Source of the DNA: Actinomycetota bacterium
GTDB taxonomy: Bacteria > Actinomycetota > Acidimicrobiia > Spongiisociales > UBA5794
Length of the DNA stretch: 45,920 nucleotides
Direction of reading: 5' to 3'
Assembly: GCA_030125685.1 (NCBI GenBank)
Contig: JASJYA010000002.1
Span: 1-45,920 of the forward strand
In this document: positions 4,847-37,260 of the stretch, in pieces
How the letters are laid out: each line of letters begins with the position of its first letter
Position numbering within the stretch: position 1 is the first letter of the stretch
Notes under the pieces: model-generated
Databases searched by the model: none
What the model was told of the DNA's origin: nothing
What the model saw: only the letters and a program-made list of their open reading frames with translations
Translations under genes and position numbers: made by a program

Positions 4847-5437
4847 GTGTCCTCAGAAATCGTAATTCCTCTATCAATCCTCGTGGCCTACCTCCTCGGG
4901 AGCGTGAGCTTCGGCATCCTCGTCGCAAAGTCACAAGGCGTCGACATCCGGTCTGAGGGCTCTGGAAACCCGGGTGTGTCGAACGTATTGCGGGTGCTTG
5001 GATACCGTTCTGGGGCGGCGGTTCTCGTTGGAGACGGAGTCAAAGGCGCCGCCGCTGCCTGGATCGGGGCTGCGCTGTGGAGCCCGGAATTCGGCTACGT
5101 GACTCTGCTCGCTGCGGTGGTCGGTCACGCATTCCCGATCTGGCATGGACTCAAGGGCGGTAAGAGTGTGGCGACGGCGATCGGGGGGTTCATGTATCTC
5201 GCTCCCGCCGTAGGTCTTGCTCTCGGCGTGCTGTGGCTCGGGATCGTTGTCGTGTGGAAGAGAGCGTCGGTCGCATCACTCGTTGTGATGACCCTTGTTG
5301 TTCCCGCGCTGTGGTTCATTGATCGAACGAACGCGGAACTCGCATGGGCGGTAGCGATCGCCGTGTTCGTGCTCGTGCGGCACGCAAGCAACATCAAGCG
5401 ACTTCTATCCTCCAGCGAGCAGTTGGTGACTCGGTGA
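4847..5437 (+). CDS. plsY: Glycerol-3-phosphate acyltransferase (acyl-phosphate dependent)
   Basis: 196 aa. The PlsY hallmarks LLGSVSFGILVAK...GSGNPGVSNVLRVLG...HAFPIW..LKGGKSVAT are present. GTG start at 4847, with TACACT 7 nt upstream, so the gene is possibly leaderless. Confidence 0.9.
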   Translation: MSSEIVIPLSILVAYLLGSVSFGILVAKSQGVDIRSEGSGNPGVSNVLRVLGYRSGAAVLVGDGVKGAAAAWIGAALWSPEFGYVTLLAAVVGHAFPIWHGLKGGKSVATAIGGFMYLAPAVGLALGVLWLGIVVVWKRASVASLVVMTLVVPALWFIDRTNAELAWAVAIAVFVLVRHASNIKRLLSSSEQLVTR

Positions 5438-6660
5438 AACCCCTCGATGAGGCTCGCGCCGAGGTGCTCGCCTCGTTGCCGTCCCTCAGCACGGAAACGG
5501 TGCCTGCTGTCCAGAGTCTCGGCAGGGTGACTGCTGAACCGGCGGTCACACTTGAGTCGATTCCTCCCTTTGACAACTCGGCGATGGACGGGTACGCCGT
5601 TATCTCACTAGACACCACCGATGCCCCTGTGGAGCTCACTGTGATCGAGGATGTTGCGGCCGGATCGGTCCCCACTAAGCGAGTCGAGCACGGCGCCGCG
5701 ACTCGCATCATGACAGGCGCCCCTATGCCCGAGGGTGCGGACGCCGTAGTAAAGGTCGAGGACACCGAGTCTCCTGATCGTGACAGGGTGACTGTGAGGT
5801 GTTCGGTTGATGCTGGGAGGAATGTGCGACCCGCAGGCGGCGACATGTCCCCCGGGGATGTCATTGTGGAATCCGGCACGCGGCTTACGGCGCGACACGT
5901 CGCGAGCCTTGCGAGCGCAGGCGTCAATCCGATGGTTTCGATACTCCCGACCGTGGCGATCATGTCGACGGGGGATGAGATCGTCGATCCGGCCACCGAA
6001 CGACTCGAGCCCGGCGCCATCAGGGATTCGAACAGGGCGCTGCTGCGCGCCATGCTCGCCGAACTCGATGTCCCTGTCCTCGATCTGGGAATCATCGGTG
6101 ACGATCCTGTGCAGCTCAGGGCCGCGTACGAGAAGGCTGCGGCTGAAGCGGACCTCATAATCTCGACCGGTGGCGTGTCGATGGGCGACTACGACTACGT
6201 CAAGCAGATCCTCGGTGAACTTGGCAGCGTTGAATTCTGGCGGGTCGCCATGCAGCCCGCCAAACCGTTCGCGTTCGGGACTGTCAACGGCGTGCCGCTG
6301 TTCGGCCTGCCGGGCAACCCTGTCTCGACGTTCGTCTCTTTCGAGCAGTTCGTCCGCCCCGCCCTGCTGCACATGATGGGAGCAACTCGCATATTGCGAA
6401 CACGACTTATCGGAATAATGGGAGAGGATGTCGACACAAGCGAAGCCAAGACAGTCTTCCTCCGGGTCCTTCTCGCCCAGGACGCCAACGGTCCATTCGT
6501 CGCCGTCCGGTCCGGCGGGCAAGGATCGAACGTGCTCTCAGGGCTAGCAAACGCCGAGGCGTTCGCCGTGGTACCGGTCGGCGTCGGCTCGCTCTCCGCG
6601 GGTGATGATGTCACACTGGAGATGTTCAACTGGCCGGAAGGGCGAAGAATCGATGAGTGA
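5434..6660 (+). CDS. moeA: Molybdopterin molybdenumtransferase (MoeA / gephyrin E-domain-like)
   Basis: PPFDNSAMDGYAV, TGAPMPEGADAVV and ISTGGVSMGDYDYV motifs are present. The GTG at 5434 overlaps the plsY TGA (GTGA). The longer ORF from 5344 lies inside plsY. Confidence 0.9.
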   Translation: MKPLDEARAEVLASLPSLSTETVPAVQSLGRVTAEPAVTLESIPPFDNSAMDGYAVISLDTTDAPVELTVIEDVAAGSVPTKRVEHGAATRIMTGAPMPEGADAVVKVEDTESPDRDRVTVRCSVDAGRNVRPAGGDMSPGDVIVESGTRLTARHVASLASAGVNPMVSILPTVAIMSTGDEIVDPATERLEPGAIRDSNRALLRAMLAELDVPVLDLGIIGDDPVQLRAAYEKAAAEADLIISTGGVSMGDYDYVKQILGELGSVEFWRVAMQPAKPFAFGTVNGVPLFGLPGNPVSTFVSFEQFVRPALLHMMGATRILRTRLIGIMGEDVDTSEAKTVFLRVLLAQDANGPFVAVRSGGQGSNVLSGLANAEAFAVVPVGVGSLSAGDDVTLEMFNWPEGRRIDE

Positions 6661-7123
6661 GCTCAACCATCTCGACGAGACCGGCGCCGTGCGCATGGTC
6701 GATGTTGGAGGAAAACCAGCGACACAGCGCGTCGCGGTTGCGGAGGCGTTCGTCGCGATGGCGCCTGACACGACCGAGCGGCTATTCGCCGAAGATCTCG
6801 AGAAGGGGGATGCGCTCGCGACGATTCGGATTGCTGCGATCCAGGCGGCGAAAAGGACACCAGATCTGATCCCGCTGTGTCATCCGCTGCCGATCGACCG
6901 CATTGACGTAGCCGTTGAACGCACAGATTCCGGCGCAAGGATCGAGGTGCTCGTAGGGGTCGAGGCTCGTACGGGCGTCGAGATGGAGGCCATGACCGGC
7001 GCCGCGCTCGGGGCGCTCGCGTTGTACGACATGGTCAAGGGCATCGATAAGGGCGTTTCGATCGAAGCGGTCCGGCTCCTGTCCAAGACCGGCGGAAAGT
7101 CGGGGGAGTGGAAGCGTGCCTGA
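6653..7123 (+). CDS. moaC: Cyclic pyranopterin monophosphate synthase
   Basis: 156 aa with the typical MoaC pattern MVDVGGKP.T.R.A.A...LIPLCHPL...VEARTGVEMEALT. The ATG at 6653 overlaps the end of moeA. Confidence 0.9.
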   Translation: MSELNHLDETGAVRMVDVGGKPATQRVAVAEAFVAMAPDTTERLFAEDLEKGDALATIRIAAIQAAKRTPDLIPLCHPLPIDRIDVAVERTDSGARIEVLVGVEARTGVEMEAMTGAALGALALYDMVKGIDKGVSIEAVRLLSKTGGKSGEWKRA

Positions 7124-7601
7124 CTGGACTGCGGCTGTGGTCACGGTGTCAGACTCAGCCGCGGCGGGCGAATCCACCGATACATCCGGCGCCGTTGCTG
7201 TCGGAGCCCTCGAGAACGTCGGGTTCGACGTCGTTGAGTCTGTGATCGTCCCGGACGGCGTCAATTCTGTCGCAGAGGCGCTCATCCGTCTCTCTCAGTC
7301 TGTGTCGCTCATCGTCACGACAGGCGGTACAGGCCTCAGCCCACGAGATCTCACGCCGGAGGCGACCAGGTCTGTGATCGATAGGGAGATTCCGGGGATC
7401 TCTGAAGCGATGCGGGCAGACACGTTCCGAAAGATCCCATTCGGCATGTTGTCGAGAGGGGTGAGCGGTCTGAGAGGCGGTTGTGTCATCGTCAATCTTC
7501 CGGGATCGCCCAAGGCTGTGACCGAAGGATTAGCTGTTATCGTCGACGTGCTCATCCATGCAGTCGATGTCGCGAGCGGGGAATTCGGCCGACATGGATG
7601 A
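7116..7601 (+). CDS. MogA/MoaB-family molybdenum cofactor biosynthesis protein
   Basis: 161 aa with VVTVSDS...LIVTTGGTGLSPRDLTPEAT...NLPGSPKA. The GTG start overlaps the moaC stop by 8 nt. Confidence 0.85.
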   Translation: MPDWTAAVVTVSDSAAAGESTDTSGAVAVGALENVGFDVVESVIVPDGVNSVAEALIRLSQSVSLIVTTGGTGLSPRDLTPEATRSVIDREIPGISEAMRADTFRKIPFGMLSRGVSGLRGGCVIVNLPGSPKAVTEGLAVIVDVLIHAVDVASGEFGRHG

Positions 7602-8893: not shown

Positions 8894-10825
8894 ATGATCA
8901 TCACTGCTCCGTACGGGTCCTGGGAATCGTCGATCACGCTCTCCATGTTGACGGACGCCGGTGTGCGCCTCGGCGATGTCGTTGTCGATGGCGACGATCT
9001 CTACTGGACCGAAGGCCGTGCCCAAGAAGGTGGGCGGACCGTCATCGTTCGCCGAGATGCGCGCGGAGTGATCGCAGACGTGACGCCCGCAGGATTCAAT
9101 GCTCGATCCCGCGCGCACGAATATGGTGGAGGCGCTTACGCGGTGCGAGACGGAGTGCTGATCTCGTGCAGCTTCGAGGATCAGCGGGTGTACCTGCTCG
9201 GGGGTGACGATCCGGTGGCGATCACCCCTGAGCCCGAGATACCGGCCGGTGATCGGTACGCCGACTTCGTCTTCCACGGTGACAACATCATCTGCGTGCG
9301 TGAGCGCCATCGCGAGAGCGGTGAGCCGGTCAACTCTCTGGTGGTCTTCCCTCTCGACGGCTCCGAGGAACCGCGTGTCATTGCCGAGGGCTATGACTTC
9401 TACTCGTCTCCCCGTGTCAGTCCGGACGGAGCCACGCTGGCGTGGCTCTCCTGGGATCATCCACGAATGCCGTGGGACGGAACCGAGTTGTGGGGTGCAG
9501 CGCTTGCAGAGGACGGGTTTGTGTCTGAGCCGGAATTGCTCGCGGGGGGTGAGGCCGATTCGATCTTTCAACCTGAGTGGTCACCCGACGGTGTGCTCCA
9601 CTTCGTGTCGGATCGTTCCGGCTGGTGGAATCTGTTCCGCATGGTCGACGACAGGGCCGAGATGCTCCACGGCATGGAGGCGGAGTTCGGCGTTCCACAG
9701 TGGCAATTCGGGATGCGTCGCTATGGCTTCGCGTCCAGGGGTCGCATCGTCACCTTGTATTCGGAGAACGGATTCGATCAAATCGGGATTGTCGAGGACG
9801 GCATGCTGCGCCGCGTGCAGAACACGTCTGAGCGATTCGGCTACTGCCTGGGTGTTCGCGGCGACGTGTTCTATACCACTGCTGGGAGCGGCGGAAGCCT
9901 GCCAGCGGTCGTCGGAATCGACATCGAGACCGGGGGCGTCGAGGTCGTGAGGACAAGCCTCGACATCGACATCGACCCTGGGCTGATCAGCCATCCGAAG
10001 CCGATTGAGTTTCCAACCACTCACGGCGCGGTCGCATTCGCCTTTTACTATCCACCCCGAAACCCGTCGTTTATGGGTCCGGCGGGAGAGCAACCGCCGC
10101 TCCTCGTGCTGAGCCATGGCGGCCCGACCAGTTCTACCTCGCCGGTGCTGGACGTTGGCATTCAGTTTTGGACTTCACGCGGCTTCGCTGTTGTTGATGT
10201 CAATTACCGGGGATCGACTGGATACGGGAGGCGTTACAGGGATGCGCTCCGCGGAGAGTGGGGCGTTTCGGATGTCGACGACTGCATCAACGCCGCCCTA
10301 TATCTCGCGGACGCCGGTTTGGCGGATCCGAACCGAATGGCGATCCGAGGGGGGAGCGCAGGCGGTTACACGACTTTGTGCGCACTCACCTTCTCGGATG
10401 TCTTCGCCGCCGGTGCTTCGTACTACGGAGTCGGTGACCTGGCGGCGCTGGCTGCCGACACCCACAAGTTCGAGTCCCGCTACCTCGACAGCCTGATCGG
10501 TCCCTACCCGGAAGCAGCTGATCTGTACGACGAAAGGTCGCCGTTGCGCAATCTCGACGGATTGTCCTGTCCCGTGATCCTTTTGCAGGGACTTGACGAC
10601 GAGGTGGTTCCCCCCGCCCAGGCGCAGGAGATCGTCGCCGCGCTTCATGCAAGGGGTATCCCGCACGCTCATGTGGAGTTCGAGGGAGAGGGCCACGGTT
10701 TTCGGAGAGCCGAGAACATTGAGCGGGCTCGAGAAGCCGAGTTCTTCTTCTACTCGCGGGTATTCGGAATCGATCCGGCTGACACACTCAACCCTGTGGA
10801 GATCGAGCACGAAGAACAAATCTAG
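8894..10825 (+). CDS. S9-family serine peptidase (prolyl oligopeptidase / acylaminoacyl-peptidase type)
   Basis: 643 aa. An N-terminal propeller-like region is followed by a C-terminal alpha/beta hydrolase with the nucleophile elbow GGSAGGYT, the acid LQGLDDEVVP and the His in EGEGHGF. Confidence 0.9.
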   Translation: MIITAPYGSWESSITLSMLTDAGVRLGDVVVDGDDLYWTEGRAQEGGRTVIVRRDARGVIADVTPAGFNARSRAHEYGGGAYAVRDGVLISCSFEDQRVYLLGGDDPVAITPEPEIPAGDRYADFVFHGDNIICVRERHRESGEPVNSLVVFPLDGSEEPRVIAEGYDFYSSPRVSPDGATLAWLSWDHPRMPWDGTELWGAALAEDGFVSEPELLAGGEADSIFQPEWSPDGVLHFVSDRSGWWNLFRMVDDRAEMLHGMEAEFGVPQWQFGMRRYGFASRGRIVTLYSENGFDQIGIVEDGMLRRVQNTSERFGYCLGVRGDVFYTTAGSGGSLPAVVGIDIETGGVEVVRTSLDIDIDPGLISHPKPIEFPTTHGAVAFAFYYPPRNPSFMGPAGEQPPLLVLSHGGPTSSTSPVLDVGIQFWTSRGFAVVDVNYRGSTGYGRRYRDALRGEWGVSDVDDCINAALYLADAGLADPNRMAIRGGSAGGYTTLCALTFSDVFAAGASYYGVGDLAALAADTHKFESRYLDSLIGPYPEAADLYDERSPLRNLDGLSCPVILLQGLDDEVVPPAQAQEIVAALHARGIPHAHVEFEGEGHGFRRAENIERAREAEFFFYSRVFGIDPADTLNPVEIEHEEQI

Positions 10826-10849
10826 GACGGCCCGCCCTTCGCTGACAGG

Positions 10850-10879
10850 TTGACACATCCCCTCTCCATCCGTTACGAT
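10850..10879 (+). promoter_or_regulatory. Candidate promoter of the tetR-bzd operon: TTGACA - 18 nt - TACGAT
   Basis: Read directly: TTGACA at 10850-10855 and TACGAT (TAnnnT) at 10874-10879, 34 nt upstream of the tetR ATG. Confidence 0.45.
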
Positions 10880-10886
10880 ACGACAG

Positions 10887-10900
10887 ACCGGTCAGTCGGT
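10887..10900 (+). promoter_or_regulatory. Operator-like site ACCGGTCAGTCGGT (ACCG-N6-CGGT), site 1 of a recurrent motif
   Basis: It lies immediately downstream of the -10 element, at about the predicted TSS. Near-identical copies occur at 35868-35881 (13/14) and, on the other strand, at 43699-43712 (12/14 to the 35868 copy). Confidence 0.45.
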
Positions 10901-10912
10901 AGGTAAACGCAG

Positions 10913-11548
10913 ATGACACGAGACGCCACAAGAACCCTTGCAAGATCAAAGGCCAGATCAGAGGCCACCTCGGCCAGGATCATCGCCGCGGCCAGAACGC
11001 TCTTCGTGGCCAAGAATTACGCGGATGTCACTACGGACATGATCGCCGGGGCGGCAGGCGTGACAAAGGGCGGTCTCTATCACCACTTCCCGAGCAAGGA
11101 ACAGCTCTACATCTCGATGATACTCGACGACCTCGATCGTAAACGTCGCCTTTTCGAACAGGCCGTCGCCGCACAGGGTAATTGCCGCGACCGTCTCGCC
11201 AAACTGACCAGGGACTTCCTTGAGCAGCCGGATGAGGAACGCAAACTGGCTCGCCTTGTGCGGCGCGACATCAACATATTCACCGGGGAAGAACGGGACC
11301 GTCTCGTGCGGGCCTACCAGCTCGCTCTGCCGGAGCAGATCGAGGCGATCATCAGAGAAGGGATCGAGGACGGCGAGCTCGCCCCCGGGGATCCTCGAAT
11401 CCTCTCGTGGTCGTTCGTCGCGCTCGTCGAGGTCGTGATCGGTCGGTACGCGAACCACGTTCTCGGAAGCACTGAGGCCCGTCTCGATCATGTTCTCGAA
11501 CTCTTCTTCGACGGAGCAGGCGCCAAACCGACTGGAGGGACAGAATGA
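10913..11548 (+). CDS. TetR/AcrR-family transcriptional regulator
   Basis: 211 aa. The N-terminal HTH is RIIAAARTLFVAKNYADVTTDMIAGAAGVTKGGLYHHFPSKEQLY. The stop overlaps the next start (ATGA). Confidence 0.9.
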   Translation: MTRDATRTLARSKARSEATSARIIAAARTLFVAKNYADVTTDMIAGAAGVTKGGLYHHFPSKEQLYISMILDDLDRKRRLFEQAVAAQGNCRDRLAKLTRDFLEQPDEERKLARLVRRDINIFTGEERDRLVRAYQLALPEQIEAIIREGIEDGELAPGDPRILSWSFVALVEVVIGRYANHVLGSTEARLDHVLELFFDGAGAKPTGGTE

Positions 11549-12720
11549 CACTGACGGCGACAAGAGTCTTCACTGAGTGGCACGACAAATCGCTCGATGA
11601 TGCACTTGGCGAGTGCAGGGACATGATCGAATCCCCCGATTTCGAAACGGTGAAACGTTGGCGTGACGAAGGCGGAAAGGTCGCTGGTCACTTCCAGGTG
11701 TACTTCCCTGAAGAGATCATCCACGCAGCAGGCATGCTCCCGTTCAAGGTGCGTGGCGCACCGATGGAGCCAAACCTGGCGGACTCCCATTTCGGCTCAT
11801 ATCTCTGTTCGATCCTCAAGACTTCACTCGAAATGGCGTTGAGCGACCAGGTTCGGATGGAGATGTTCGTGTCCCACCCCATCTGTGATGCGGCCAGGAA
11901 TCTCGCGGCGATCTGGGGCCGCAACACGGACTATCCGTGCCAGATCTTGTACCTCCCGCAGAATCCGAACTCCTCCGGGAGCGCGGACTATCTCGAACAC
12001 GAGTATGACAGGATCAGAAGGGTCACCGAGGAAGTGGCAGGCGTCGAGATCACCGATGAGGCTCTCCGTGAGTCGATCGTCGTCTTCAACGAGAACCGGA
12101 AGCTCATTCGTGAGTTGTACGCCATCAAGGCGAGCACGCCATGGCTTGTCGCCGCCGAGGACGCGTACGCAATGGTCGCCCTTGCAGGGATGATCCCGCG
12201 CGAAGAGCACAACGAACTTCTCACGACGCTCATCCCGCTGATCAAGGAACGCGATCTAAAACGAGAGGATCGCATCCGCGTCGTATTCGAAGGTGGGTTC
12301 TGTGAGCAGCCGCCTTTCGATCTCATCCGAATGCTCGGGCGAACATGCTACGTGGTTGACGACGACTTCATGATCGGCCTGCGCTACATCACATCCGATG
12401 TCCCGACAGAGGGCCTCCCGCTCAGACAGCTCGCCGAGTCGTACCTCGACCGCTCCTCCTACAGCCCTGTGCAGCACGATCTCCGTAAACCGAAAGAGGA
12501 CATGCTCATCGAGCGAATCCGAGGAGCAAGAGCAGACGCGGCAATCATCGCCGCAGCCAAGATGTGCGAGCCGGGCCTCGAGGAACAAGTCACCTATACC
12601 CATGCCCTCGACGACGAGGGAATCGCGTACTTCGTGAGCGAGTTTGAGGAGAACATGAGCTCCTTCGATCAACTCGAGCTGCAGGTCGAGACATTCGTCG
12701 AGAACCTGCTCTTTCAATGA
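11545..12720 (+). CDS. bzdN: Benzoyl-CoA reductase class I catalytic subunit, BcrC/BzdN (gamma) type (BcrC/BadD/HgdB family)
   Basis: 391 aa. 2-hydroxyacyl-CoA dehydratase/BCR family features are present (FPEEIIHAAGMLPF..., conserved Cys in HPICD and KMCEPG). It is first in a C-B-ATPase-ATPase gene order. The symbol is assigned from architecture and synteny only. Confidence 0.75.
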   Translation: MTLTATRVFTEWHDKSLDDALGECRDMIESPDFETVKRWRDEGGKVAGHFQVYFPEEIIHAAGMLPFKVRGAPMEPNLADSHFGSYLCSILKTSLEMALSDQVRMEMFVSHPICDAARNLAAIWGRNTDYPCQILYLPQNPNSSGSADYLEHEYDRIRRVTEEVAGVEITDEALRESIVVFNENRKLIRELYAIKASTPWLVAAEDAYAMVALAGMIPREEHNELLTTLIPLIKERDLKREDRIRVVFEGGFCEQPPFDLIRMLGRTCYVVDDDFMIGLRYITSDVPTEGLPLRQLAESYLDRSSYSPVQHDLRKPKEDMLIERIRGARADAAIIAAAKMCEPGLEEQVTYTHALDDEGIAYFVSEFEENMSSFDQLELQVETFVENLLFQ

Positions 12721-12748
12721 GGGGAAACGTCATCACAAGGAGGCGGAG

Positions 12749-14056
12749 ATGACCACGCTAGAAGACACGCAGGAACTGCTTGGGCGAGGGAATCGTGAAG
12801 GTGCTGCTCTGTTCAAGGAGTGGTTCGCCGAACTTGATGAGACGGCGAAGACCGGTGGACTCGCTGCCTACGTATTCGTCATGGGGAGTATCAACGAGAT
12901 ACTCAAGACATTCGACCTCCCCGTCGTGTTCCCGGAGATCAACTCGCTTCAGACCGCAGTGCGCCGGGTCGCCCACGAGTATCTCGAGGAGGCGGAGGAC
13001 TATGGGTATTCGCCAGACATCTGCGGATATGTCAAAGCCGACATCGGAACCCAGCTCCGAGGCGGTGAGCATCCGATGGCTCAGATCCCGAAGCCTGGCA
13101 TCACGGTGCTTACCAACGCATGCAACACGTATATCAAGTGGGCAGAGATATGGGAGCGCATGTACAGAACGCCCATGTTCACTATCGACATACCAGGCAC
13201 GCGCCAAGCCGGCGGACAGACATGGAGAGGAAACCCCGATTTCGAAGCTGACCGTAGGTACGTCGAGGTACAGCTGAGGGAACTCATCACCTTGTGCGAA
13301 GACGTCACAGGCAAGGACTTCGACATCGACAAGTTCCGCGAGGTCCTCACCTATGCCAACACCATGAGCCGCTCATGGAAGCGGATTCTCGAACTCAACC
13401 AAGCAAGACCCTCCCTGTTCAATGCGCTGACCGATGGCACGATCTACCTCGGTGTCGCCAACGGTCTCAGGGGTACCGAGGAGGGGGCTCGATACTTCGA
13501 ACGACTCGTCGAGGAGATGGAGTACAAGGCTGCCAACGGAATCGGCCAGACTATCGATGAGAAGTACCGCCTGCTGTTCGTCGGTGTTCCCTGCTACCCG
13601 ATCTTCCGCCGGTTCAACGAGCTCTTCACAGATTGGGGCGGCACGTTCGTCAATTCGACGTATCTCTGGTTCGCGTCCGGGGGCACGAATCGGGGTTTCG
13701 AGTACGACCTTGGCGACCCGCTGGCGAGTCTCGCAGAGGGCATACTCATCAGCGTCAGGGATGCGATGGATTCCATGTTCCACCAGAACGTTGCCCTGGC
13801 AGACATGGCGCAGAACTTCGATGTCGACGGCATCATCTATCACCCGATCAAGAGCTGCAGAACGGTCTCAACCGGCCTTGCAGACAGCAGGAAGCACATG
13901 ACCGAAGAACTCGGCATACCGAGTCTGTTCATGGAGTCGGACATGATGGATCGCAGGGTTGTCTCGGAGGCCCAAATGAAGAACCGTGTGGATGCCTTCT
14001 TCGAGGGCCTCGCAACCCGGCGTCAGCAAGCCCTGGCCGACCCAAAGGTGAGGTGA
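12749..14056 (+). CDS. bzdO: Benzoyl-CoA reductase class I catalytic subunit, BcrB/BzdO (beta) type
   Basis: 435 aa. This is the second HgdA/BcrB-family subunit ([10 protein letters not shown]..., [21 protein letters not shown]). A strong SD, AAGGAGG, lies upstream. Confidence 0.75.
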
Positions 14057-14061
14057 TCTCA

Positions 14062-14883
14062 GTGGCGTACGCAGCAGGAGTCGACGTTGGCTCCACCCAG
14101 ACCAAAGCAATCATCATCGACGAGGACGGCTCGATCGTCGGTCGCTCGCTCATCGACACTGGCGCCAATGTGGTCAAGGCAGCGGAGTCATCCTTTGTCA
14201 CCGCTCTCGCGGAAGGTGATATCGACGAGGAAGAAGTCGAGTACATCATCGGGACAGGCTACGGCCGGTATAGGGTGACATTCGGGAACAGCCAGGTGAC
14301 AGAGATCAGCTGTCACGGGCGGGGCGCCGTGCACTTGTTCCCAGAGACGAGAACCGTCGTCGACATGGGGGGCCAGGACACAAAAGCGATCGCAGTCAAC
14401 GCGAATGGAGAGATCACGGACTTCTGCATGAACGACAAATGTGCTGCAGGGACAGGTCGCTTCCTTGGAGCTGCCGCAGACGCCTTGGATATCCCGCTTG
14501 ACGACCTTGGTCCGGTCTCACTCAAGAGCACGAAACCGGTCAAGATCAGTACCACGTGCACCGTGTTCGCCGAGTCAGAGATACTCGCTTGGATCGGCAA
14601 GGGCAAGAAGATCGAGGATATCCTGTGGGGTGTCCACAAGTCGATTGCGGCCCGATCGGCCGGGCTGATGCGACGAGTCGGTATCAACGATGAGATCACC
14701 TTCACAGGAGGTGTCACTCGCAATGTTGGAATGGTCAAAGCGCTCGAGGATCGCCTCGATAAGCACCTGAACATCAGTGATGACTGCCACTACATGGGTG
14801 CCCTTGGCGCCGCCCTGTTCGCGCTCGACAGCGTGAAGGCTGGACGAGCTCCAGTCGGCAGAACGGCCGCGGTGACGTCGTGA
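14062..14883 (+). CDS. bzdP: Benzoyl-CoA reductase ATPase subunit (BcrAD/BadFG activase family), first copy
   Basis: 273 aa from the GTG at 14062 (SD AGGTGAGG). It has the ASKHA ATPase N-terminus [14 protein letters not shown] and the cluster-ligand motifs [12 protein letters not shown] and CTVFAESE. The symbol is by gene order only. Confidence 0.8.
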
Positions 14884-15707
14884 TCATCACAGCAGGACTG
14901 GACGTCGGATCCACCTACACCAAAGCAGTCATCCAGGGAGAAGACGGCGAGATCCTCGGTAAGGCCTTCGGTCCGACAGGGTTCAGACTCCGCGAGATGG
15001 CACGTTCGATCTACGCCGAGGCACTCACCAATGCCGACCTTCACGAGAAGGACATCGCCTATGTGATCGCAACAGGCGCGGGACGTCACCAGGTCGATTT
15101 CAAGGATCTCCATGTGACGGACCTCACCGCGAGCGCCCGAGGTGCCTGTTTCCTGTTCCCGGGCACGCGCACGATCCTCGACATCGGTGGTCAGACGATG
15201 AAGGCGAGCAGGGTGGATGAATCTGCACAGGTTCAGTCATTCAGGCTCAACGACAAATGTGCTGCCGGCACGGGGGCCTTCTTGGAGAAGACGGCGCGAT
15301 ACATGGGCTACAGCACCCAGGAGATCGGTTCGCTGATGACAACATCGAAGGAGTCCGTCCCGATTTCCGGCGTATGCGCGGTTTTTGCTGAGTCTGAGGT
15401 GATCAACCATCTCTCCATCGGCACATCGCCTGCGGACATCATGCAGGGAGCCATCGAGTCGCTCACAGGTCGTTCAGTGCAGCTCATGAAGCGGGTGAGG
15501 GCTGAGCCCGAGTACACGCTCGTCGGAGGGATCCTCAGGTTCGAGACGATGGGTCGATCTGTCAGTCAGGTGCTCGAAGCCGATGTCAACGTGCCGGATG
15601 AAGAGATGGTTCAGTATGTATCGGCGCTGGGCTGCGCGATTCTGGCTCGTCGACGGTTGGAGAAGCTTGGTGCTGAAGTCGATGTTGAGGCGGCGGTATC
15701 GGCGTGA
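14880..15707 (+). CDS. bzdQ: Benzoyl-CoA reductase ATPase subunit (BcrAD/BadFG family), second non-identical copy
   Basis: 275 aa with [25 protein letters not shown] and [13 protein letters not shown] overlap joins it to the preceding gene. The symbol is by gene order only. Confidence 0.8.
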
Positions 15708-15976
15708 ATACGACGGAGGAGACCGAGCCTGTTTACTGTTCTGAGGGCATCCAGATCCTGCGAGCTCCGGTCCTCGCTTCCGGCGGGTGGAAGCGGCGTA
15801 CCGTCACCGATCCGCAGCGAGTGGACGAACTTGTGGATCTCTACACAGACCTGGGGTACGAGACGATGACGACGGGACTCGATCCCTCAAGCTTCGGCAA
15901 GGCGTGCATGGCCTGCGCTGTCACCGCGTGCGCAACCTATGTCGCGTTGTTCACCCGCAGACCGGATGGCGGCTGA
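15704..15976 (+). CDS. Small (90 aa) Cys-containing protein of unknown function, translationally coupled to the reductase
   Basis: The GTG start overlaps the preceding TGA. Cys residues fall at 12, 68, 71 and 76 (C-X55-C-X2-C-X4-C). This is not a canonical CxxCxxCxxxCP ferredoxin, and no family was recognised. Confidence 0.5.
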   Translation: MNTTEETEPVYCSEGIQILRAPVLASGGWKRRTVTDPQRVDELVDLYTDLGYETMTTGLDPSSFGKACMACAVTACATYVALFTRRPDGG

Positions 15977-16073
15977 ACCGAACCGCCCCGGCAAGGGATG
16001 TCGTTGACTTATCCCCGGCTCGTCGAGACGGTCACCTTCGAGCGAACCTCACTCTCGTTGGTTTCCCATCACG

Positions 16074-16191
16074 TCTGCCGACAAGGGAGAGGAACCCCCA
16101 GTCCGAAGTGTGCTTCCCCGGCACGGTGCGTCGCAATCTGTATCGTGACTCGCCAATCCTGATCTGTCCCAGAGACCACACGGTGTCGGCA
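16074..16191 (+). promoter_or_regulatory. Possible structured 5' leader of the P-type ATPase gene, closed by a 9-bp helix
   Basis: CTGCCGACA (16074-16082) is exactly complementary to TGTCGGCAG (16183-16191), and the second arm ends 24 nt before the ATG. GGGAGAGG follows the 5' arm and AGAGACC precedes the 3' arm. No riboswitch class was securely recognised. Confidence 0.25.
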
Positions 16192-16215
16192 GGTTGGCGG
16201 TAGGCTCGAAAGGGT

Positions 16216-18690
16216 ATGACGACGCCATCGCCAATGGTCGGCTGTCCCCCGACGGGTCTGACCAGTGCCGAAGTGATGGAGCGGACCACGGCGGGGAAGG
16301 TGAACGTCGTCCTAGACACTCCCGCCCGTACCACGTGGGACATCGTTCGGGCCAACGTGGTCACACGGTTCAACATCCTGGTGGGTATCTTGCTCGCCGT
16401 CGTCCTCGTCGTTGTGCGCGAGCCGCGGGATGCTCTATTCGGAATCGTCCTTGTCTCGAACGCGGCCATCGGGATCGTTCAGGAGCTCCGCGCGAAGGCA
16501 ACGCTCGACCGCCTGACGCTTCTCACGGCGCCAACGGCGACTGTGACTCGCGACGGGCGCCGGCAGGAGGTTTCCGTCGAAGCTCTGGTCGAGGGGGACA
16601 TCATCGCTCTTGTGTCGGGGGATCAGGTGCCCGTGGACGGACCGGTACTGATGGGCCGCGGTCTCGAGGTCGACGAGTCGCTGTTGACGGGTGAATCCGA
16701 GTCTGTGTTCAAGCAGCCCGGCGACGTGTGTCTGTCCGGGTCGTTCGTCGTTGCGGGGAGCGGCTGGTTCCGCGCCGAACGTGTCGGCAACGAAGCATAC
16801 GCCGCCGTCCTGACGCGCGAAGCGAAGCAGTTCACATTGGTCCGCTCGGAACTGCGCAAGGGCATCGATTGGTTCCTGGGCGGGGTGTCCTGGGCGGTGG
16901 CGCCGGTCATTGCCCTGCTGGTGTGGAGTCAGTACCGGCTCGGATTCGGGTACAAAGAAGCACTCGGCTCCGCGGTGGCAGGCGCCATCGGCATGATCCC
17001 CCAGGGTCTCGTCCTCCTGACCTCGCTGGCATTTGCAGTCGGGGTGATCCGGCTCGGACGTCGCAACGTCCTCGTGCAGGAACTGTCTGCACTTGAAGGC
17101 CTCGCCCGGGTCGACACGGTGTGTTTCGACAAGACCGGCACCCTCACCCAGGGGGTGCTCGCGGTCAAAGAGGCCGTATGGCTCGGCGACATCGACCCGG
17201 GACCGGCTCTGGCCGCATTGGCAGCCGCTGAGCCCGTCCCGAATGCAACACTGCGGGCGATTGGAGATCGCTTCGGCGAGACGCCCGCTTGGACGCCCGA
17301 TGGCGCCATTCCGTTCTCGTCGGCGCGAAAGTGGAGTGCCGCCTCGTTCCACGAGTCCGGAACGTGGGTTCTCGGAGCGCCCGAGATCGTCGCTCCCAAC
17401 GACCCGAGCGTTGCCGAGCGATCCCGGGCCTACGCCCGATCCGGTCTTCGCGTTCTGCTGCTGGCCTGGACAGACCAGCCGTTGAACGGGGATCGTCTCG
17501 CGCGTCGGCTACGGCCATCCGCCATCATTACCCTCGGCGATCGGGTCCGCCCAGATGCGGCGGAGACCCTGCGTTTCTTCGCGGCGCAGGGGGTACGGGC
17601 CAAAGTCGTCTCGGGAGACCATCCAGACACGGTCGCCGCCATCGCCCGCGACGTCGGAGTGCCAAATTCCGGTGATGTAGTCGATGCCAGGCGACTCCCC
17701 GAGGATCCCGCCGCTTTTGCCGAGATCGTTGAACGTACAACGGTGTTCGGGCGGGTGACGCCCCATCAGAAACAGGCAATCGTGCACGCTCTCCAGTCGC
17801 GGGGTCACGTGGTTGCGATGACCGGGGACGGCGTTAACGACGTCCTTGCGCTCAAAGACGCCGATATCGGGATCGCCATCGGTGGGGGCAGCGCCGCGGC
17901 TCGCTCGGTCGCCCAACTGGTGTTGATCGACGGCGAGTTCAACAGGCTGCCCAACGTCGTGGCCGAGGGCCGCCGGGTGATAGCCAACATCGAGCTGGTC
18001 GCCAACCTCTTCGTCACCAAGACCGTGTACGCCATCTTTCTCGCCCTCGCGGTCGGCCTGACGGCTCAGCCGTTCCCGCTCCTTCCCCGCCACCTGACGT
18101 TGGTCGGGTCGATCACCATCGGCGTACCGGCTTTCTTCCTCGCTCTCGCTCCTAATTCACAGCGGGCCCGGCTGGGTTTCACCCGACGCGTGCTTGCCTT
18201 TGCGCTCCCGACCGGGTTGGCCGCCGGACTTGCGACCTGGGCGGCATACCAGCTCGCGATCGACGACGGCGTCACCCTCGGGGAGGCCAGAACAACTGCG
18301 ATGCTGGTACTCTCGGCGATCGGCATCTTCGCCCTCGGAATCGTGAGTCGGCCGCTGACACCATGGAAAAAGACCCTCATTGGATCGATGGTTGCCCTCC
18401 TCGTACTTGCGCTGGTCTCCACATCGGCGCAGGAATTCTTCGAGCTCGCGCTGCCCCGACCTGTCGTGCTGATGGCAGCGATCGGAGTGGTGGCGATCAC
18501 CGGCACGGTGATGATCTTCGTGCTGCGAGCGGTCGGCTGGATCAAGAAGGTTCCAATCTACTTGCACGATCATCCTCCGACAGTGAACGGCGCATGGCGT
18601 ATGTCGCGCAATCGGCTGATCCAGGCATGGAACAGCGAGGCCGTAGGCAGCCTGATCGACCGCTATCGTGCGTGGCGTCGGTCACGGTGA
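16216..18690 (+). CDS. Cation-translocating P-type ATPase (P2-like; resembles actinobacterial CtpE-type)
   Basis: 824 aa with TGES (LLTGESESV), the phosphorylation site CFDKTGTLTQG, the hinge MTGDGVNDVLALKDADIGIA and about 10 TM segments. Confidence 0.92.
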   Translation: MTTPSPMVGCPPTGLTSAEVMERTTAGKVNVVLDTPARTTWDIVRANVVTRFNILVGILLAVVLVVVREPRDALFGIVLVSNAAIGIVQELRAKATLDRLTLLTAPTATVTRDGRRQEVSVEALVEGDIIALVSGDQVPVDGPVLMGRGLEVDESLLTGESESVFKQPGDVCLSGSFVVAGSGWFRAERVGNEAYAAVLTREAKQFTLVRSELRKGIDWFLGGVSWAVAPVIALLVWSQYRLGFGYKEALGSAVAGAIGMIPQGLVLLTSLAFAVGVIRLGRRNVLVQELSALEGLARVDTVCFDKTGTLTQGVLAVKEAVWLGDIDPGPALAALAAAEPVPNATLRAIGDRFGETPAWTPDGAIPFSSARKWSAASFHESGTWVLGAPEIVAPNDPSVAERSRAYARSGLRVLLLAWTDQPLNGDRLARRLRPSAIITLGDRVRPDAAETLRFFAAQGVRAKVVSGDHPDTVAAIARDVGVPNSGDVVDARRLPEDPAAFAEIVERTTVFGRVTPHQKQAIVHALQSRGHVVAMTGDGVNDVLALKDADIGIAIGGGSAAARSVAQLVLIDGEFNRLPNVVAEGRRVIANIELVANLFVTKTVYAIFLALAVGLTAQPFPLLPRHLTLVGSITIGVPAFFLALAPNSQRARLGFTRRVLAFALPTGLAAGLATWAAYQLAIDDGVTLGEARTTAMLVLSAIGIFALGIVSRPLTPWKKTLIGSMVALLVLALVSTSAQEFFELALPRPVVLMAAIGVVAITGTVMIFVLRAVGWIKKVPIYLHDHPPTVNGAWRMSRNRLIQAWNSEAVGSLIDRYRAWRRSR

Positions 18691-18939
18691 AGGTTGCGTC
18701 GCTCGCCTCGGGTGACAACCCCAATTCGATGGGCCCGCTGCCAGCAAGATCAATGGTCGCCTCCCTCAGCAAACGTGACGTCTCGGGCTCACGCGCCGGG
18801 TCCATCATCATCCAGGCGCCGAGACAGGAGGAGCACCGTCACCATCACACCTGCGGGGCGGTCACCCGACCCTGCACCGTGGATGCCTGCCGGCACCCCC
18901 CACATTACGAAGCAGGAGGGCAGCCGCAGCGAATTCCGA

Positions 18940-19599
18940 TCAATCCGTTACCCGACACCAATAGTCACCGGCGGTGTTGCCCGAGAAGGTGTTCTCCGTC
19001 ACGGTGACGACACCCGGTTCCGGCCACGGGCAGACGCCGAAGTTCCACAGGTAGATGCCCTACAGGTTGTCGGTGGTCGTGTTTCCTGCCACAACGTACC
19101 CGGTCGGTCCCTGGCCGTCCTCATCGCTGAGCTGGAGCCCCGGTCCATGGTTACGTGACAAGATGTTGTTCGTCACGGTAACGTCGCGCCCGCCGTCGAC
19201 CCAGATCGCACCGTCCCAGTAGTCGCCGTTGGCATCGAGTTCATTGTCGGTAACGACATTGCCATCGACGAGCAGACCCACGCCGTCTTCGACCAGAATT
19301 CCCCCTCCCACGTTGTGGTGGATCCAGTTGTTGCGGATCACGGCGTCCCTGATCTCGAAGGTATCGATACCGGTGCCGAGGACGAAGCGCTCCTGTCGCG
19401 TCGGTGAGGGGCCGTTCTCGAATGCCTCGCTCTCCTCAACGACAAGACCGGTCACGCCGATGGCGGCGAACCCGAAACCTTCTCCGTCCAGATCCGAACT
19501 GATACTGGCGAAGCCATTGGAAACGAACCGGACGTCAAAGTCGGGACTGTGCCGCTCGACACATGAGGGAACCCCTGGGTCCATCGAGCCTGGGTCCAT
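18940..19599 (-). pseudogene. Remnant of a right-handed parallel beta-helix repeat protein (NosD/pectate-lyase-like), interrupted by an in-frame TAG
   Basis: Beta-helix repeats are present (IRNNWIHHNVGGGILVEDG, VDGNVVTDNE, VTVTNNILSRNHGPGLQL, VVAGNTTTDNL). The TAG at 19060-19062 is followed, in frame, by 39 more repeat-like codons (GIYLWNFGV...VTVTENTFSGNTAGDYW) up to the TGA at 18940. There is no signal peptide or credible N-terminus. A 13-bp direct repeat (ctgggtccatcga, copies 15 bp apart) gives MDPGSMDPG. Confidence 0.55.
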
Positions 19600-19696
19600 C
19601 GAACCGGCACAGCGTCGAATCCATACCCCGATGCCGCAATCGACTCGGAATCCGCGAGCACCGCGGGTGTCGCCCTTTTTCGAGGAAGCTTGTCTC

Positions 19697-21001
19697 TTAC
19701 CAAGGCCTCCGGGCGATGGCCTCGATCGGCTTCATACCCTGTCCGAATCGCGCGATGGCCTCGCGGTTTTTCGTGAGCTCGCTGTAGGCAATAAAGTGAA
19801 CGTCCAGCAGATTGGCCACTCGACTGAAGGCAGGACGCTTCAACTGTTCCCAGATGTCAGCCTCGCGGGCGTCCGGGGCGACCAGGAATAGCGACAACTC
19901 ATCGTGTTCCAGACCGAGCGCAAGGTCCGACATTCGTAGGATCCCGGAGTAGATCGATGTCGTATGCTCGACTTCGAAGGCTGCCACCACGCGATCGGCG
20001 GTCGAATCGACCCAGAGCACGTCGATCAACCGGATTGCGTCGAATGACGGGTTCTTCTTCAAGCTTTCCGGGAGCCCATCAAGGCAGCCATCAGACAGAC
20101 GCCCGTCGCGGTAGGGTCGGTTGACGTCGTTGCTTGCGATCCACACGTCGAATCCCACCGCGAACCCCAGATCCCGCAGCCAACCCTGAATCTCAGTGTG
20201 GGTGTGGTCCTGGTCCTGCGCTGCCTGAATTGCTCGGTCGGCGCGGTCGGACTCGGCACGAACCTCGGCGAGATCCGTCTCCCATCGCGCAAGGGCTGCG
20301 TCATCCGACTCGCGGGGCGGAGCCGGGTACCTCCCGGAGCCGACATCGAACAGGAGGCCCGCAATCGCTCCAAGGTCGTTGGAAAAAAGGTCTCTGTACT
20401 TCGAGTTCAACTCCAGAATCCCGCGACGCATTGCCAGATACCCGTCCCACCGACCCAACTTCACTTTCGCCCCGGTTACGGCGTTGTAGCCCTTGACGAT
20501 TTTGGTGTTCGAGGGAGGAACCACGGTTGGGTGAAGAAAGTAAAGGATATTGGCGGCGGCGGGCCCGAGACCTTTGATTGCTACGCGGTCCAAGGTCTGG
20601 ATGGCTTCAACGATCTCCGACTCCTCACCGGAACAGCCGACGCACGTCTGGAGGAAACGGCCGAAAGCGAGCTGGTTCTCGGGGCTCTCGTAGATGTCGG
20701 GGATACGTAGCTTCGGCTTCCAGAGGAAGGCGTGGTCGGCGCCTCGGAAGATCTGCCTCTGTTCCGCGATGGACTTTACGACCGTTTCGAGCGAAGAACC
20801 CTTGTACACGTTTCCGAAGGTACCCGCCTCGATCTCTGCTACTACCACCGAAATGCCCTGTCGAATGGAGCGGAAGTTTTTCAGCCGTTCTTCCCAGAGG
20901 AACCAGGTCCGGTAGGTGCCCAACGGGTCCTCCCGCCAACGAGTCAGGAGACGCCGAAACGGATCGATCGTAGAAAGCTGCGGCTCAGGCGCGATATTCA
21001 A
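19697..21001 (-). CDS. Orphan protein with a C-terminal PD-(D/E)xK-like (restriction-endonuclease-fold) domain; N-terminal domain unassigned
   Basis: 434 aa. TTG start at 21001 behind a strong SD (GGAGGAGGAAG). The C-terminal pattern is HTEIQGWLRDLGFAVGFDVWIASND...IDVLWVD...VVAAFEVEHTTSIYSGILRMSDL...LFLVAPD. I recall this arrangement from uncharacterised restriction-endonuclease-like proteins. There is no methyltransferase or partner gene nearby. Confidence 0.5.
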   Translation of the reverse strand: MNIAPEPQLSTIDPFRRLLTRWREDPLGTYRTWFLWEERLKNFRSIRQGISVVVAEIEAGTFGNVYKGSSLETVVKSIAEQRQIFRGADHAFLWKPKLRIPDIYESPENQLAFGRFLQTCVGCSGEESEIVEAIQTLDRVAIKGLGPAAANILYFLHPTVVPPSNTKIVKGYNAVTGAKVKLGRWDGYLAMRRGILELNSKYRDLFSNDLGAIAGLLFDVGSGRYPAPPRESDDAALARWETDLAEVRAESDRADRAIQAAQDQDHTHTEIQGWLRDLGFAVGFDVWIASNDVNRPYRDGRLSDGCLDGLPESLKKNPSFDAIRLIDVLWVDSTADRVVAAFEVEHTTSIYSGILRMSDLALGLEHDELSLFLVAPDAREADIWEQLKRPAFSRVANLLDVHFIAYSELTKNREAIARFGQGMKPIEAIARRPW

Positions 21002-21083: not shown

Positions 21084-21848
21084 CTAGGCGTTCCTCCATT
21101 CGGGGGGGCGTTTCTCGATGAACGCCGTGATGCCCTCGACACCGTCGTGGGTCGCGAGCAGCTCTTCGAGGTAGAGGCGCTCTGTCTCCGCGAGGCGCTG
21201 TTCGACCTCGACTCGCCTCGGTTCTCTGATGGCCCTGGTTGCCAAACGAAGCGACAGCGCCGACCGAGGAACGAAGTGCGTGTTGACGAACGACTCGAGT
21301 GCCGTATCCAGGTCTCCATCGAGCGCGAGCGCGTTGACGATACCCATCCGTCTGGCTTCCTTGGCCGTCAGGCTGCGGCCTGTCAGGAGCACGTCCTCAG
21401 CAACTCTGCCGGTGAGAAGAGCGGTTGCTGCGGGTGGAAAGACGCCGAGCTGAATCTCGGGGCAGGCCAGCGTCGCTCCCTCCTCTGCGATGACGATGCC
21501 GCAGGCGAGCACGAGTTCGAGTCCACCTCCGAGACAGCTGCCTTGAACTCCAGCAACTGTCGGGTAGGGGAAACCGACGAGGGCCCGGATCACTGCGCCA
21601 AGCGCGGCAAGCATCTCTGGTGCCTTGTCAGGGAGATGCTCTTCGACACTGGCGCCAAACGAGAAGTGTCTGCCTGCTCCGCGCAGAACGAGGACCTTGC
21701 CATCGTCTGCCTCGGCAGCAGTCTCGATGGCCTCGAGAAGCTGGCCACACAGGGCGATATCGATGACATTCCCGGGGGCCTTGTCGAGTGTGACCGTGTG
21801 AACCGCGCCATCGGGCGAGGCTTCGTGATGAACCCAGGTGCTGGTCAT
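21084..21848 (-). CDS. dch: Enoyl-CoA hydratase/crotonase; probably cyclohexa-1,5-diene-1-carbonyl-CoA hydratase
   Basis: 254 aa with a crotonase fold (GAGRHFSFGASVEEH...GGGLELVLAC). It overlaps oah by 4 nt. The Dch assignment rests on context plus the HFSFGASV.EH motif as I remember it. Confidence 0.6.
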   Translation of the reverse strand: MTSTWVHHEASPDGAVHTVTLDKAPGNVIDIALCGQLLEAIETAAEADDGKVLVLRGAGRHFSFGASVEEHLPDKAPEMLAALGAVIRALVGFPYPTVAGVQGSCLGGGLELVLACGIVIAEEGATLACPEIQLGVFPPAATALLTGRVAEDVLLTGRSLTAKEARRMGIVNALALDGDLDTALESFVNTHFVPRSALSLRLATRAIREPRRVEVEQRLAETERLYLEELLATHDGVEGITAFIEKRPPEWRNA

Positions 21849-22945: not shown

Positions 22946-22958
22946 AGCGTTTTACCTT

Positions 22959-28086: not shown

Positions 28087-28177
28087 CAACTCTCCCGAAA
28101 TGCGTTGCGTCATCGTAGCGGAGCGGAACCTGGCGCCCGGCGAGTACAGATCGGCGACACAAACCAGAGCGGCAGCC

Positions 28178-29647: not shown

Positions 29648-29662
29648 GGTTGGAGCTCTCCC

Positions 29663-33017: not shown

Positions 33018-33158
33018 CCAATAGGCGCACGACGACGGGGGCGAAGCGGCTGGCTCGAGGCCGAGAACCGGGTTATGAGCCCGATCTTCTTACGGTGGCG
33101 GGGCTTGTGTGCCAGACTGACTGGCGATGCGCCTTGTTCACAACTCAGTATCCATGCT

Positions 33159-35818: not shown

Positions 35819-35867
35819 TCCGTCGCCCTTGCATCGTTTGGACGCGACTGCTACGGTGGATTCACAT

Positions 35868-35881: not shown

Positions 35882-35960
35882 TTCCAAATGTCCGACAACA
35901 GAGACTGGGCCTCGCTAGCACATCGACGAAGCATTCATCTGCGAAAAGGAGACATCAATC

Positions 35961-37253: not shown

Positions 37254-37260
37254 TCAGTGG

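Follow-up and report, generated by a model that had tools for sequence, protein, structure and literature searches.

Putative TetR operators in a benzoyl-CoA catabolic island of Acidimicrobiia point to two neighbouring repressor systems

Results

Genes and candidate sites at the locus

The stretch of DNA analysed here, which we term the window, comprises positions 1 to 45,920 of contig JASJYA010000002.1 (assembly GCA_030125685.1) from an Actinomycetota bacterium. It has a G+C content of 62% and encodes proteins whose closest relatives are found in metagenome-assembled genomes of Acidimicrobiia. The window carries an island of genes for benzoyl-coenzyme A (CoA) catabolism, in which an original prediction, made from the sequence alone, had described a recurrent operator-like motif at four places and had read it as the mark of a single TetR regulon. 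The first of these places lies 5' of a gene for a TetR family regulator with TetR_N and TetR_C_24 domains (10913-11548, plus strand), here named TetR1, whose stop codon shares bases with the start codon of the following gene (ATGA). The genes that follow form a class I benzoyl-CoA reductase (BCR)-like operon on the plus strand (11545-15707), co-transcribed with TetR1. Its products are two HGD-D subunits (11545-12720 and 12749-14056), together with a pair of BcrAD-type ATPases (about 14060-14883 and 14880-15707). The name bzd operon previously given to it is too specific: the subunits find their best matches in the Bcr-type C, B and D models, with 243 and 199 bits for C and B, above the Bzd-type scores (103 bits for bzdN against a cut-off of 454, and 99 for bzdO against 449), and all matches fall under the family cut-offs of both types.

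The gene map was derived from Pfam and NCBIfam scans of the window proteins, and gene starts were corrected by means of homologue lengths and the gene calls of contig JASJYD010000002.1, which is 99.94% identical to the window. The corrected starts concern an HMGL/isopropylmalate-synthase-like gene (hereafter HMGL-like; start at 43740), a gene for an OB-fold protein (42989-43411) and one for a Zn-dependent alcohol dehydrogenase (33159). All four sequences quoted in the original prediction are present, namely ACCGGTCAGTCGGT at 10887-10900 (core of site 1), ACCGGCCAGTCGGT at 35868-35881 (core of site 2), TCCGGCCGGTCGGT at 43699-43712 on the minus strand (the 14-mer of site 3) and GCCAGACTGACTGGC at 33111-33125 (site 4), and after correction of the gene starts each of them is intergenic, as had been stated. 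The motif scans reported below covered the window and the orthologous metagenome loci fetched for comparison, which are referred to by L numbers.

Conservation of the TetR1 promoter and its probable operator

A sigma-70-like promoter of the TetR1 operon is found at 10850-10879 on the plus strand, consisting of TTGACA (10850), an 18-nt spacer and TACGAT (10879) and matching 10 of the 12 consensus positions. The core of site 1 starts 7 nt after the TACGAT -10 box, and the complete site, a 22-mer (ACAGACCGGTCAGTCGGTAGGT, 10883-10904, plus strand) that we consider a putative TetR1 operator, extends over the predicted start of transcription.

A scan of one genome per species yielded 60 loci with TetR1 orthologues of 48-81% protein identity, which originate from Acidimicrobiia, Planctomycetota, Gemmatimonadota, Acidobacteriota and Gammaproteobacteria. 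The word ACCG-N6-CGGT is present just 5' of the TetR1 start in 57 of these loci, at a distance of no more than about 50 nt in nearly all of the 58 usable ones, and the family of operators located just 3' of the -10 box has the consensus ACCG(A/G)(C/T)YRGTCGGT. Most Acidimicrobiia possess the 22-mer ACCGACCGGTCAGTCGGTCGGT; the window and two further loci (L021 and L027) have the shorter form acagACCGGTCAGTCGGT, and in Planctomycetota and Gammaproteobacteria the operator, cat-ACCGACYRGTCGGT-atg, is a perfect palindrome. A TTGACA-N17/18-TAnnnT promoter is found in 56/59 of the orthologous loci with its spacing to the core kept, the 14-mer beginning 6-8 nt past the -10 box in 39 loci. The surrounding bases diverge between lineages, and the core and its spacing from the promoter are constant. 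Since the 14-mer is located just 3' of the -10 box, a protein bound to it would cover the transcription start.

An unbiased count of 8-mers in the 57 upstream regions led to the same element: the top 16 8-mers are all sub-words of the operator and occur in 42-68% of the upstream regions, compared with 0.3-2% of background windows. Site 1 is therefore almost certainly, as judged by this phylogenetic footprinting, the operator of the adjacent TetR1 gene, and autoregulation of TetR1 through this site is very likely, which strongly supports two proposals of the original prediction, that the motif is a genuine operator-like element tied to the TetR gene of the window and that this TetR controls its own operon.

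The TetR1 protein, its gene context and its probable effector

TetR1 comprises only the TetR_N and TetR_C domains (PF00440, 7e-17; PF17932, 1.2e-8), and its recognition helix, TKGGLYHHF, is invariant among the 24 homologues in the protein alignment. The structural model is all-helical (pLDDT 89.6) and its nearest entries in the PDB are all TetR regulators, the closest being Rv0078, DarR, PfmR, AibR, FadR and FasR (21-26% identity). PfmR, AibR, FadR and FasR sense acyl-CoA, so these structural neighbours are compatible with a CoA-ester ligand for TetR1 but are no proof of one.

A bcrC-like gene or BCR-like operon lies directly 3' of TetR1 in 49 of the 60 loci and boxC-boxB in 8/60. The BCR-like enzyme and BoxCB are unrelated systems whose sole shared feature is their substrate, benzoyl-CoA, and the location of TetR1 5' of either one is our main argument for benzoyl-CoA as the effector. 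On these grounds the aryl-CoA effector suggested earlier appears a reasonable proposal, with benzoyl-CoA as the most likely candidate.

Two observations on this context may be added. The orthologues from Gammaproteobacteria and from one genome of Acidobacteriota (L047-L058) are found 5' of boxC-boxB, with a divergent benzoate-CoA ligase gene and no BCR-like operon at that place. A metagenome-assembled genome of the Acidiferrobacteraceae (CAJWEF01; L048 and L052) contains both types of TetR1 context, with slightly different operators, ACCGACTGGTCGGT and ACTGACTGGTCGGT.

Occurrence of the motif in the window

The pattern given in the original prediction has 3 matches in the window against 0.23 expected, a number that none of 100 shuffled sequences reached; this pattern was derived from the sites themselves and its chance test is therefore circular. 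We consequently employed an external consensus, ACCGACYRGTCGGT, taken solely from other genomes and the literature, allowing at most two mismatches. This matches the window at the places of sites 1-3 only, with 4 overlapping matches against 1.19 expected.

A weight matrix was constructed from 36 distinct operator sequences of the orthologous loci, with the window left out. In its 14-mer form the top three positions of the whole window are site 2 (22.6), site 1 (22.6) and site 3 (14.9), the maximum attainable being 23.1; 0.005 matches per window are expected at a score of at least 22.6 and 0.38 at 14.9 or more. The 22-mer form gives 32.9 for site 1, 25.7 for site 2 and 16.7 for site 3, with 0.015 matches expected at 16.7 or above, and none of 200 simulated windows reached the 25.7 of site 2. 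All three sites are located in non-coding DNA, which makes up roughly 7% of the window. The matrix scan gave no score above 4 in the other intergenic regions of the window, including the divergent region between boxC and the ligase gene and the hcr-like promoters, and thus detected no site at the box, hcr-like and benzoate-CoA-ligase promoters.

Site 4, previously listed as a weaker relative upstream of the alcohol dehydrogenase gene, is rejected as a member of the motif family because its matrix score (-2.3) is no better than chance. The bare core ACCG-N6-CGGT was also discarded as a search motif; it has 4 exact matches in the window and, at one mismatch, dozens more, the majority of them in coding DNA, and is too unspecific, so the inner six bases are needed. 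Across 877 kb of orthologous loci, 28 additional two-mismatch matches were found in coding sequence against about 23 expected by chance, so that within the DNA scanned the motif is not frequent in coding regions beyond the background level, a frequency that would have counted against the original prediction.

One near-match, ACCGSCCGNTCSGT, recurs about 4.5 kb 3' of TetR1 in many loci (among them L003, 13825; L014, 14535; L016, 14489; L027, 7033; L033, 14511). It is situated inside the conserved coding sequence of a BcrAD-type ATPase, and we rejected it as an operator and regard it as representing a class of false positives.

Site 2 and the ABC importer

Site 2 (35864-35885, plus strand) is a candidate operator of the TetR1 type. 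It lies 10 nt after a weak promoter-like sequence, TTGCAT-N17-TACGGT, and the ATG of a gene for a Peripla_BP_6 substrate-binding protein follows 80 nt further on. This gene opens an ATP-binding cassette (ABC) importer operon (35961-40583, plus strand), which also encodes two ATPases and two permeases. For comparison, 80 metagenome loci with orthologues of the substrate-binding protein were fetched, 75 of which were usable, and the region from -330 to +60 of the gene start was searched with a symmetrised matrix. The motif is present 5' of the orthologue in 23 of the 75 loci (28.4 kb in total), compared with 19 matches in the other 600.6 kb, which is an enrichment of about 25-fold. These operators have the form ACCGGTCAGTCGGT in marine lineages and are perfect palindromes, ACTGACYRGTCAGT, in soil lineages. 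In the metagenome loci the importer operon usually adjoins boxCB and a benzoate-CoA ligase gene, as would fit an importer of aromatic acids. It is likely, given the near-maximal matrix score and the recurrence of the motif in orthologous loci, that the importer of the window is under the control of a TetR1-type operator, and the co-regulation of uptake that had been suggested is thus plausible.

A distinct 17-mer linked to a second TetR gene

Site 3 differs from sites 1 and 2 in that it forms part of a separate, strictly conserved 17-mer, ACCGAMCGGNCGGAMGG, which occurs twice, in inverted orientation, between two divergent operons. The copy at site 3 (ACCGACCGGCCGGACGG, 43699-43715, plus strand) ends 24 nt before the start of the HMGL-like gene (43740-44993, plus strand), which is followed by an iorA-like gene on the same strand (45029 onward, running to the window edge). 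The other copy, site 3b (ACCGAACGGACGGACGG, 43468-43484, minus strand), was absent from the earlier list of sites and lies 5' of an operon on the minus strand (40694-43411) for a ChsH2-like OB-fold protein (42989-43411), a thiolase-like protein (41854-42996) and PrpF (40694-41881).

Contigs with homologues of the HMGL-like protein (72-100% identity; L163-L173) were fetched, and in all of them the OB-fold/thiolase/PrpF operon is divergent from the HMGL-like operon. The pattern ACCGA[AC]CGGNCGGA[ACGT]GG was found exactly twice per locus, inverted, in 11/11 loci with the OB-fold/HMGL-like intergenic region, and its 22 occurrences in 2.1 Mb of fetched DNA are all located in that region. The first nine bases of the 17-mer (ACCGACCGG) are those of the TetR1/PaaR consensus and A is favoured at position 6; every copy, however, has A rather than T at position 14, followed by a [C/A]GG extension, whereas the TetR1 operators of the same genomes always end in GTCGGT (pairs L005/L165, L007/L163, L021/L164 and L033/L173).

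The OB-fold/thiolase/PrpF operon is often longer, with genes of the lower benzoyl-CoA pathway (hydratase and dehydrogenase) or those for the molybdenum enzyme added to it. The HMGL-like operon has the order HMGL-like gene, (usually) two 2-oxoacid:ferredoxin oxidoreductases, a second TetR gene, here TetR2, and a family III CoA-transferase. TetR2, a protein of about 200 amino acids with a TetR_C_24 domain, is encoded at 16416-17006 of L167, a near-identical contig, about 4.2 kb past the end of the window, and was found 3' in 9/9 distinct loci checked as well as in the contig that is 99.94% identical to the window. It is 27-39% identical to TetR1 over partial alignments and has almost the same recognition helix, TKSSLYHHFPSK, the shared form being TK[GG/SS]LYHHFPSK. 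Since the 17-mer is always accompanied by TetR2, this protein is the likelier binder of site 3, and these arrangements are explained most economically if the 17-mers serve as operators for TetR2, through which it would autoregulate its own operon.

Between the 17-mers of the window there is a perfect 16-bp palindrome, TGATGCATTTGCATCA, and a conserved block, CCATTTGCGTGATGCA (43540-43555 and 43621-43636). Similar blocks recur in the orthologous intergenic regions (L163-L173) and may represent the binding site of a further regulator.

Remaining gene content of the window

Molybdenum-cofactor genes are located at 5344-7601 and an S9 peptidase gene at 8894-10825. A terminator-like hairpin has been reported on the minus strand at 10824-10838, where the S9 peptidase gene gives way to the TetR1 promoter, the flanking genes both being on the plus strand. 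Downstream of the BCR-like operon, the block at 15787-21001 contains a small open reading frame and genes for a P-type ATPase, a beta-helix protein and a protein of unknown function. Neither this block nor the S9 peptidase gene has a counterpart in any of the 60 TetR1 loci, and in relatives hydratase and dehydrogenase genes lie directly 3' of the BCR-like operon; the two segments look like lineage-specific insertions flanking that operon.

Enoyl-CoA hydratase and alcohol dehydrogenase genes (dch/had/oah-like) follow at about 21084-24023, then a 4-hydroxybenzoyl-CoA-reductase-like molybdenum enzyme (24282-28100), the genes for the oxygen-dependent BoxB and BoxC (28178-31310), a benzoate-CoA ligase gene (31449-33017), the gene for the Zn-dependent alcohol dehydrogenase (33159-34283) and a PaaK-like ligase gene (34434-35744). 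As the BCR-like enzyme, the dch/had/oah-like genes, the molybdenum enzyme and boxB/boxC are united in one island, anaerobic and aerobic routes for benzoyl-CoA co-occur in a single genome of the Acidimicrobiia type.

Discussion

A model with two repressors

Our analysis makes it probable that the motif is the operator of TetR-family repressors for benzoyl-CoA catabolism, with TetR1 acting on sites 1 and 2 and TetR2 on sites 3 and 3b. We envisage that a TetR1 dimer binds the imperfect palindrome at 10887-10900, just 3' of the -10 box and over the transcription start, and would thereby block transcription of TetR1 and of the operon for the four-subunit, ATP-dependent BCR-like enzyme, while the second operator of this type (35868-35881) would place the ABC importer under the same control. 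Accumulation of an aryl-CoA thioester, most likely benzoyl-CoA, would lead to its binding by the C-terminal domain of TetR1 and to release of the repressor, so that the operon and the uptake system would be switched on when aromatic acids are present. TetR2 would bind 43699-43715 and 43468-43484 and control the two divergent operons located there. We infer binding by either protein, repression, the choice of paralogue at site 3 and the identity of the effector from motif conservation and gene linkage. In place of the single regulon proposed earlier for the island, a pair of adjacent TetR/operator systems is the better description, since site 3 belongs to a separate class of 17-mers that is always linked to TetR2; neither system includes site 4 or the box, hcr-like and ligase genes.

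Several observations weigh against parts of this model. The substrate-binding proteins most closely related to that of the window (L081-L089, 82-88% identity) have no operator 5' of their genes, a -10-like TATGGT being kept; regulation of the importer through operators of this family is therefore recurrent but lineage-specific at best. A strict sigma-70 scan finds no strong promoter consensus at sites 2 and 3. Site 3 taken singly is not significant with the 14-mer TetR1 matrix, at the 0.38 matches expected per window, and its assignment to TetR2 derives from linkage and motif differences only; the near-identical recognition helices of TetR1 and TetR2 make cross-binding of TetR1 to the 17-mers possible. 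With regard to the effector, the structural neighbours of TetR1 include DarR and Rv0078, which are not CoA sensors, and all of them are related to it at the low identities given above.

Alternative explanations

It is conceivable that a single regulator serves the island, TetR1 binding sites 1-3 and 3b and co-regulating the BCR-like, importer, HMGL-like/oxidoreductase and OB-fold/thiolase operons, with the targets of TetR2 elsewhere. Site 3 is the third-best match to the TetR1 matrix in the window and site 3b the fourth-best in the 22-mer version, the first nine bases of the 17-mer agree with the TetR1/PaaR consensus, the operator of Ralstonia paaA (ACCGACCGGTCGGAcg) resembles the 17-mer, and the two proteins have almost the same recognition helix. 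We nevertheless judge this unlikely, as both copies of the 17-mer retain a set of invariant positions peculiar to them at loci whose HMGL-like identities range over 72-100%, next to TetR1 operators that always end in GTCGGT in the same genomes, and as TetR2 is encoded in the operon preceded by site 3 at every locus examined. The symmetrised matrix likewise separates the two classes, scoring the 17-mers at 7-15 compared with 18-22 for TetR1-type sites. A somewhat less likely proposal still is that TetR1 is an orthologue of PaaR, the phenylacetate repressor, and senses not benzoyl-CoA but phenylacetyl-CoA, formed by the PaaK-like ligase or by an indolepyruvate/phenylpyruvate oxidoreductase. The operator consensus is identical to that of PaaR from Burkholderia cenocepacia, the gene for the PaaK-like ligase is immediately 5' of site 2, and iorA-like genes adjoin site 3. 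However, the paaABCDE genes were found neither in the window nor in the 60 TetR1 loci, the ligase scores far under the PaaK cut-offs (281 bits against 700 and 239 against 646), and the constant neighbours of TetR1 are enzymes that dearomatise benzoyl-CoA. In addition, TetR1 is just 26% identical (E = 3e-7) to the TetR encoded by a paa cluster that has the same operators, on a plasmid labelled Roseateles, which argues against close orthology of TetR1 and PaaR; TetR2 is 26-28% identical to this protein.

The resemblance of sites 2 and 3 to site 1 could also be a by-product of G+C-rich, CCGG-rich intergenic DNA, or these sites could act as elements of an RNA 5' leader, leaving site 1 as the sole protein operator. 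In favour of this proposal, the 17-mer has a constant orientation towards the gene 3' of each copy and precedes the start codons by 24-76 nt, as would also suit a leader-RNA element, and site 2 is lacking in the closest relatives. We consider it very improbable all the same: a score such as that of site 2 is expected only 0.005 times per window, and the roughly 25-fold enrichment before substrate-binding-protein orthologues extends to unrelated lineages, where the element is a perfect palindrome. An Rfam scan of the window returned no family match, and the palindromic symmetry, together with the promoter-like hexamers nearby, fits a DNA operator. The division of the sites between TetR1 and TetR2 remains the reading that we prefer.

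Significance

The two-repressor model offers a concrete, testable scheme for the regulation of benzoyl-CoA catabolism in uncultured Acidimicrobiia of marine and sediment origin and in several other phyla, where this regulation is unstudied. The operator matrix can be utilised to map regulons in hundreds of metagenome-assembled genomes, and TetR1 with its site represents a candidate benzoyl-CoA-responsive pair for biosensor work. The type of switch is already well known; we describe a new, uncharacterised example that reveals no new mechanism and is useful for annotation.

Comparison with known systems

The operator word itself has a precedent. ACCGACCGGTCGGT is the validated operator of PaaR (BCAL0210), the TetR-type phenylacetate repressor of B. 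cenocepacia (Hamlin et al. 2009, PMC2770484; reviewed in PMC9493321); mutation of the operator abolishes repression, and phenylacetyl-CoA releases PaaR (PMC2770484). The perfect consensus of the TetR1 family is the same sequence, ACCGACCGGTCGGT, from which the sites of the window differ by 1-2 bases. The original prediction, which named Corynebacterium, was thus right in substance to assign the core to PaaR-type operators; the literature that we searched describes the operator solely for Burkholderia and yielded no TetR regulator of box or bcr genes that uses it. With E. coli PaaA as the query we reached further paa clusters. The same word is found in the paaA promoter of Ralstonia (cattgACCGACCGGTCGGAcgatttataat), in a cluster with no clearly assignable PaaR gene, and in two promoters of the paa cluster on the plasmid labelled Roseateles, which encodes the TetR compared with TetR1 above; no operator site was present in an unannotated paa record of Embleya. 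A search of the plasmid collection with TetR1 returned four weak matches (Sulfitobacter, Deinococcus and others), none of them in paa clusters. The PaaR operator word of Burkholderia is therefore in use well beyond phenylacetate genes.

The B. cenocepacia system resembles the one proposed here in that a TetR-type repressor responds to an aryl-CoA thioester (in the case of TetR1 a prediction) and several promoters share one operator; the appearance of its operator as a dual overlapping inverted repeat also recalls the 22-mer of most Acidimicrobiia relatives (ACCGACCGGTCAGTCGGTCGGT). The two differ in their targets, which are paaABCDE, paaZ and paaH for PaaR and the BCR-like operon or boxCB, together with the importer, for TetR1, and in the position of the operator, which lies between the -35 and -10 boxes for PaaR and after the -10 box for TetR1. 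The effector is phenylacetyl-CoA for PaaR and probably benzoyl-CoA for TetR1. A wider suggestion, which is speculative and on balance doubtful, is that ACCGAC..GTCGGT represents a cis-element of ancient origin that is common to different phyla and is recognised by several TetR subfamilies, only distantly related, with effector pockets that have come to differ: for phenylacetyl-CoA in PaaR, benzoyl-CoA in TetR1 and a downstream CoA ester in TetR2. In the Acidimicrobiia studied here, TetR1 and TetR2, with their almost identical recognition helices and overlapping operator words, would then form a cross-talking circuit of two repressors that divides the anaerobic benzoyl-CoA pathway into a module for uptake plus ring reduction and one for the lower pathway plus 2-oxoacids.

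Among the acyl-CoA-sensing TetR proteins, PfmR and PaaR of Thermus thermophilus and FadR of Bacillus respond to CoA thioesters and are among the nearest structural neighbours of TetR1, at 21-22% identity, but have different operators, for example CNAACGNNCGTTNG for T. thermophilus PaaR. The benzoyl-CoA-responsive regulators BzdR and BoxR (Azoarcus/Aromatoleum) and GenR (PMC4424350) are related to the TetR1 system by function. They perform the same logical task, since benzoyl-CoA induces the anaerobic bzd and the aerobic box pathways via related regulators. These proteins belong, however, to other families (XRE with a shikimate-kinase-like domain, or MarR) and recognise other operators, whereas TetR1 has the TetR domains only.

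MbdR, from Azoarcus sp. CIB, is the closest functional analogue of TetR1; this protein of the TetR family represses a class I BCR-type gene cluster and is released by 3-methylbenzoyl-CoA (PMC4424350; PDB 4uds). The sequence similarity of TetR1 to the MbdR structure is remote (E = 1.4e-8), and the MbdR operator, ATAC-N10-GTAT, is unrelated to the ACCG-N6-CGGT of TetR1. MbdR is nevertheless autoregulated, and more than one promoter carries its operators, among them promoters of genes for uptake and activation. The operators overlap both the -10 box and the start of transcription, in a manner similar to that proposed here for site 1.

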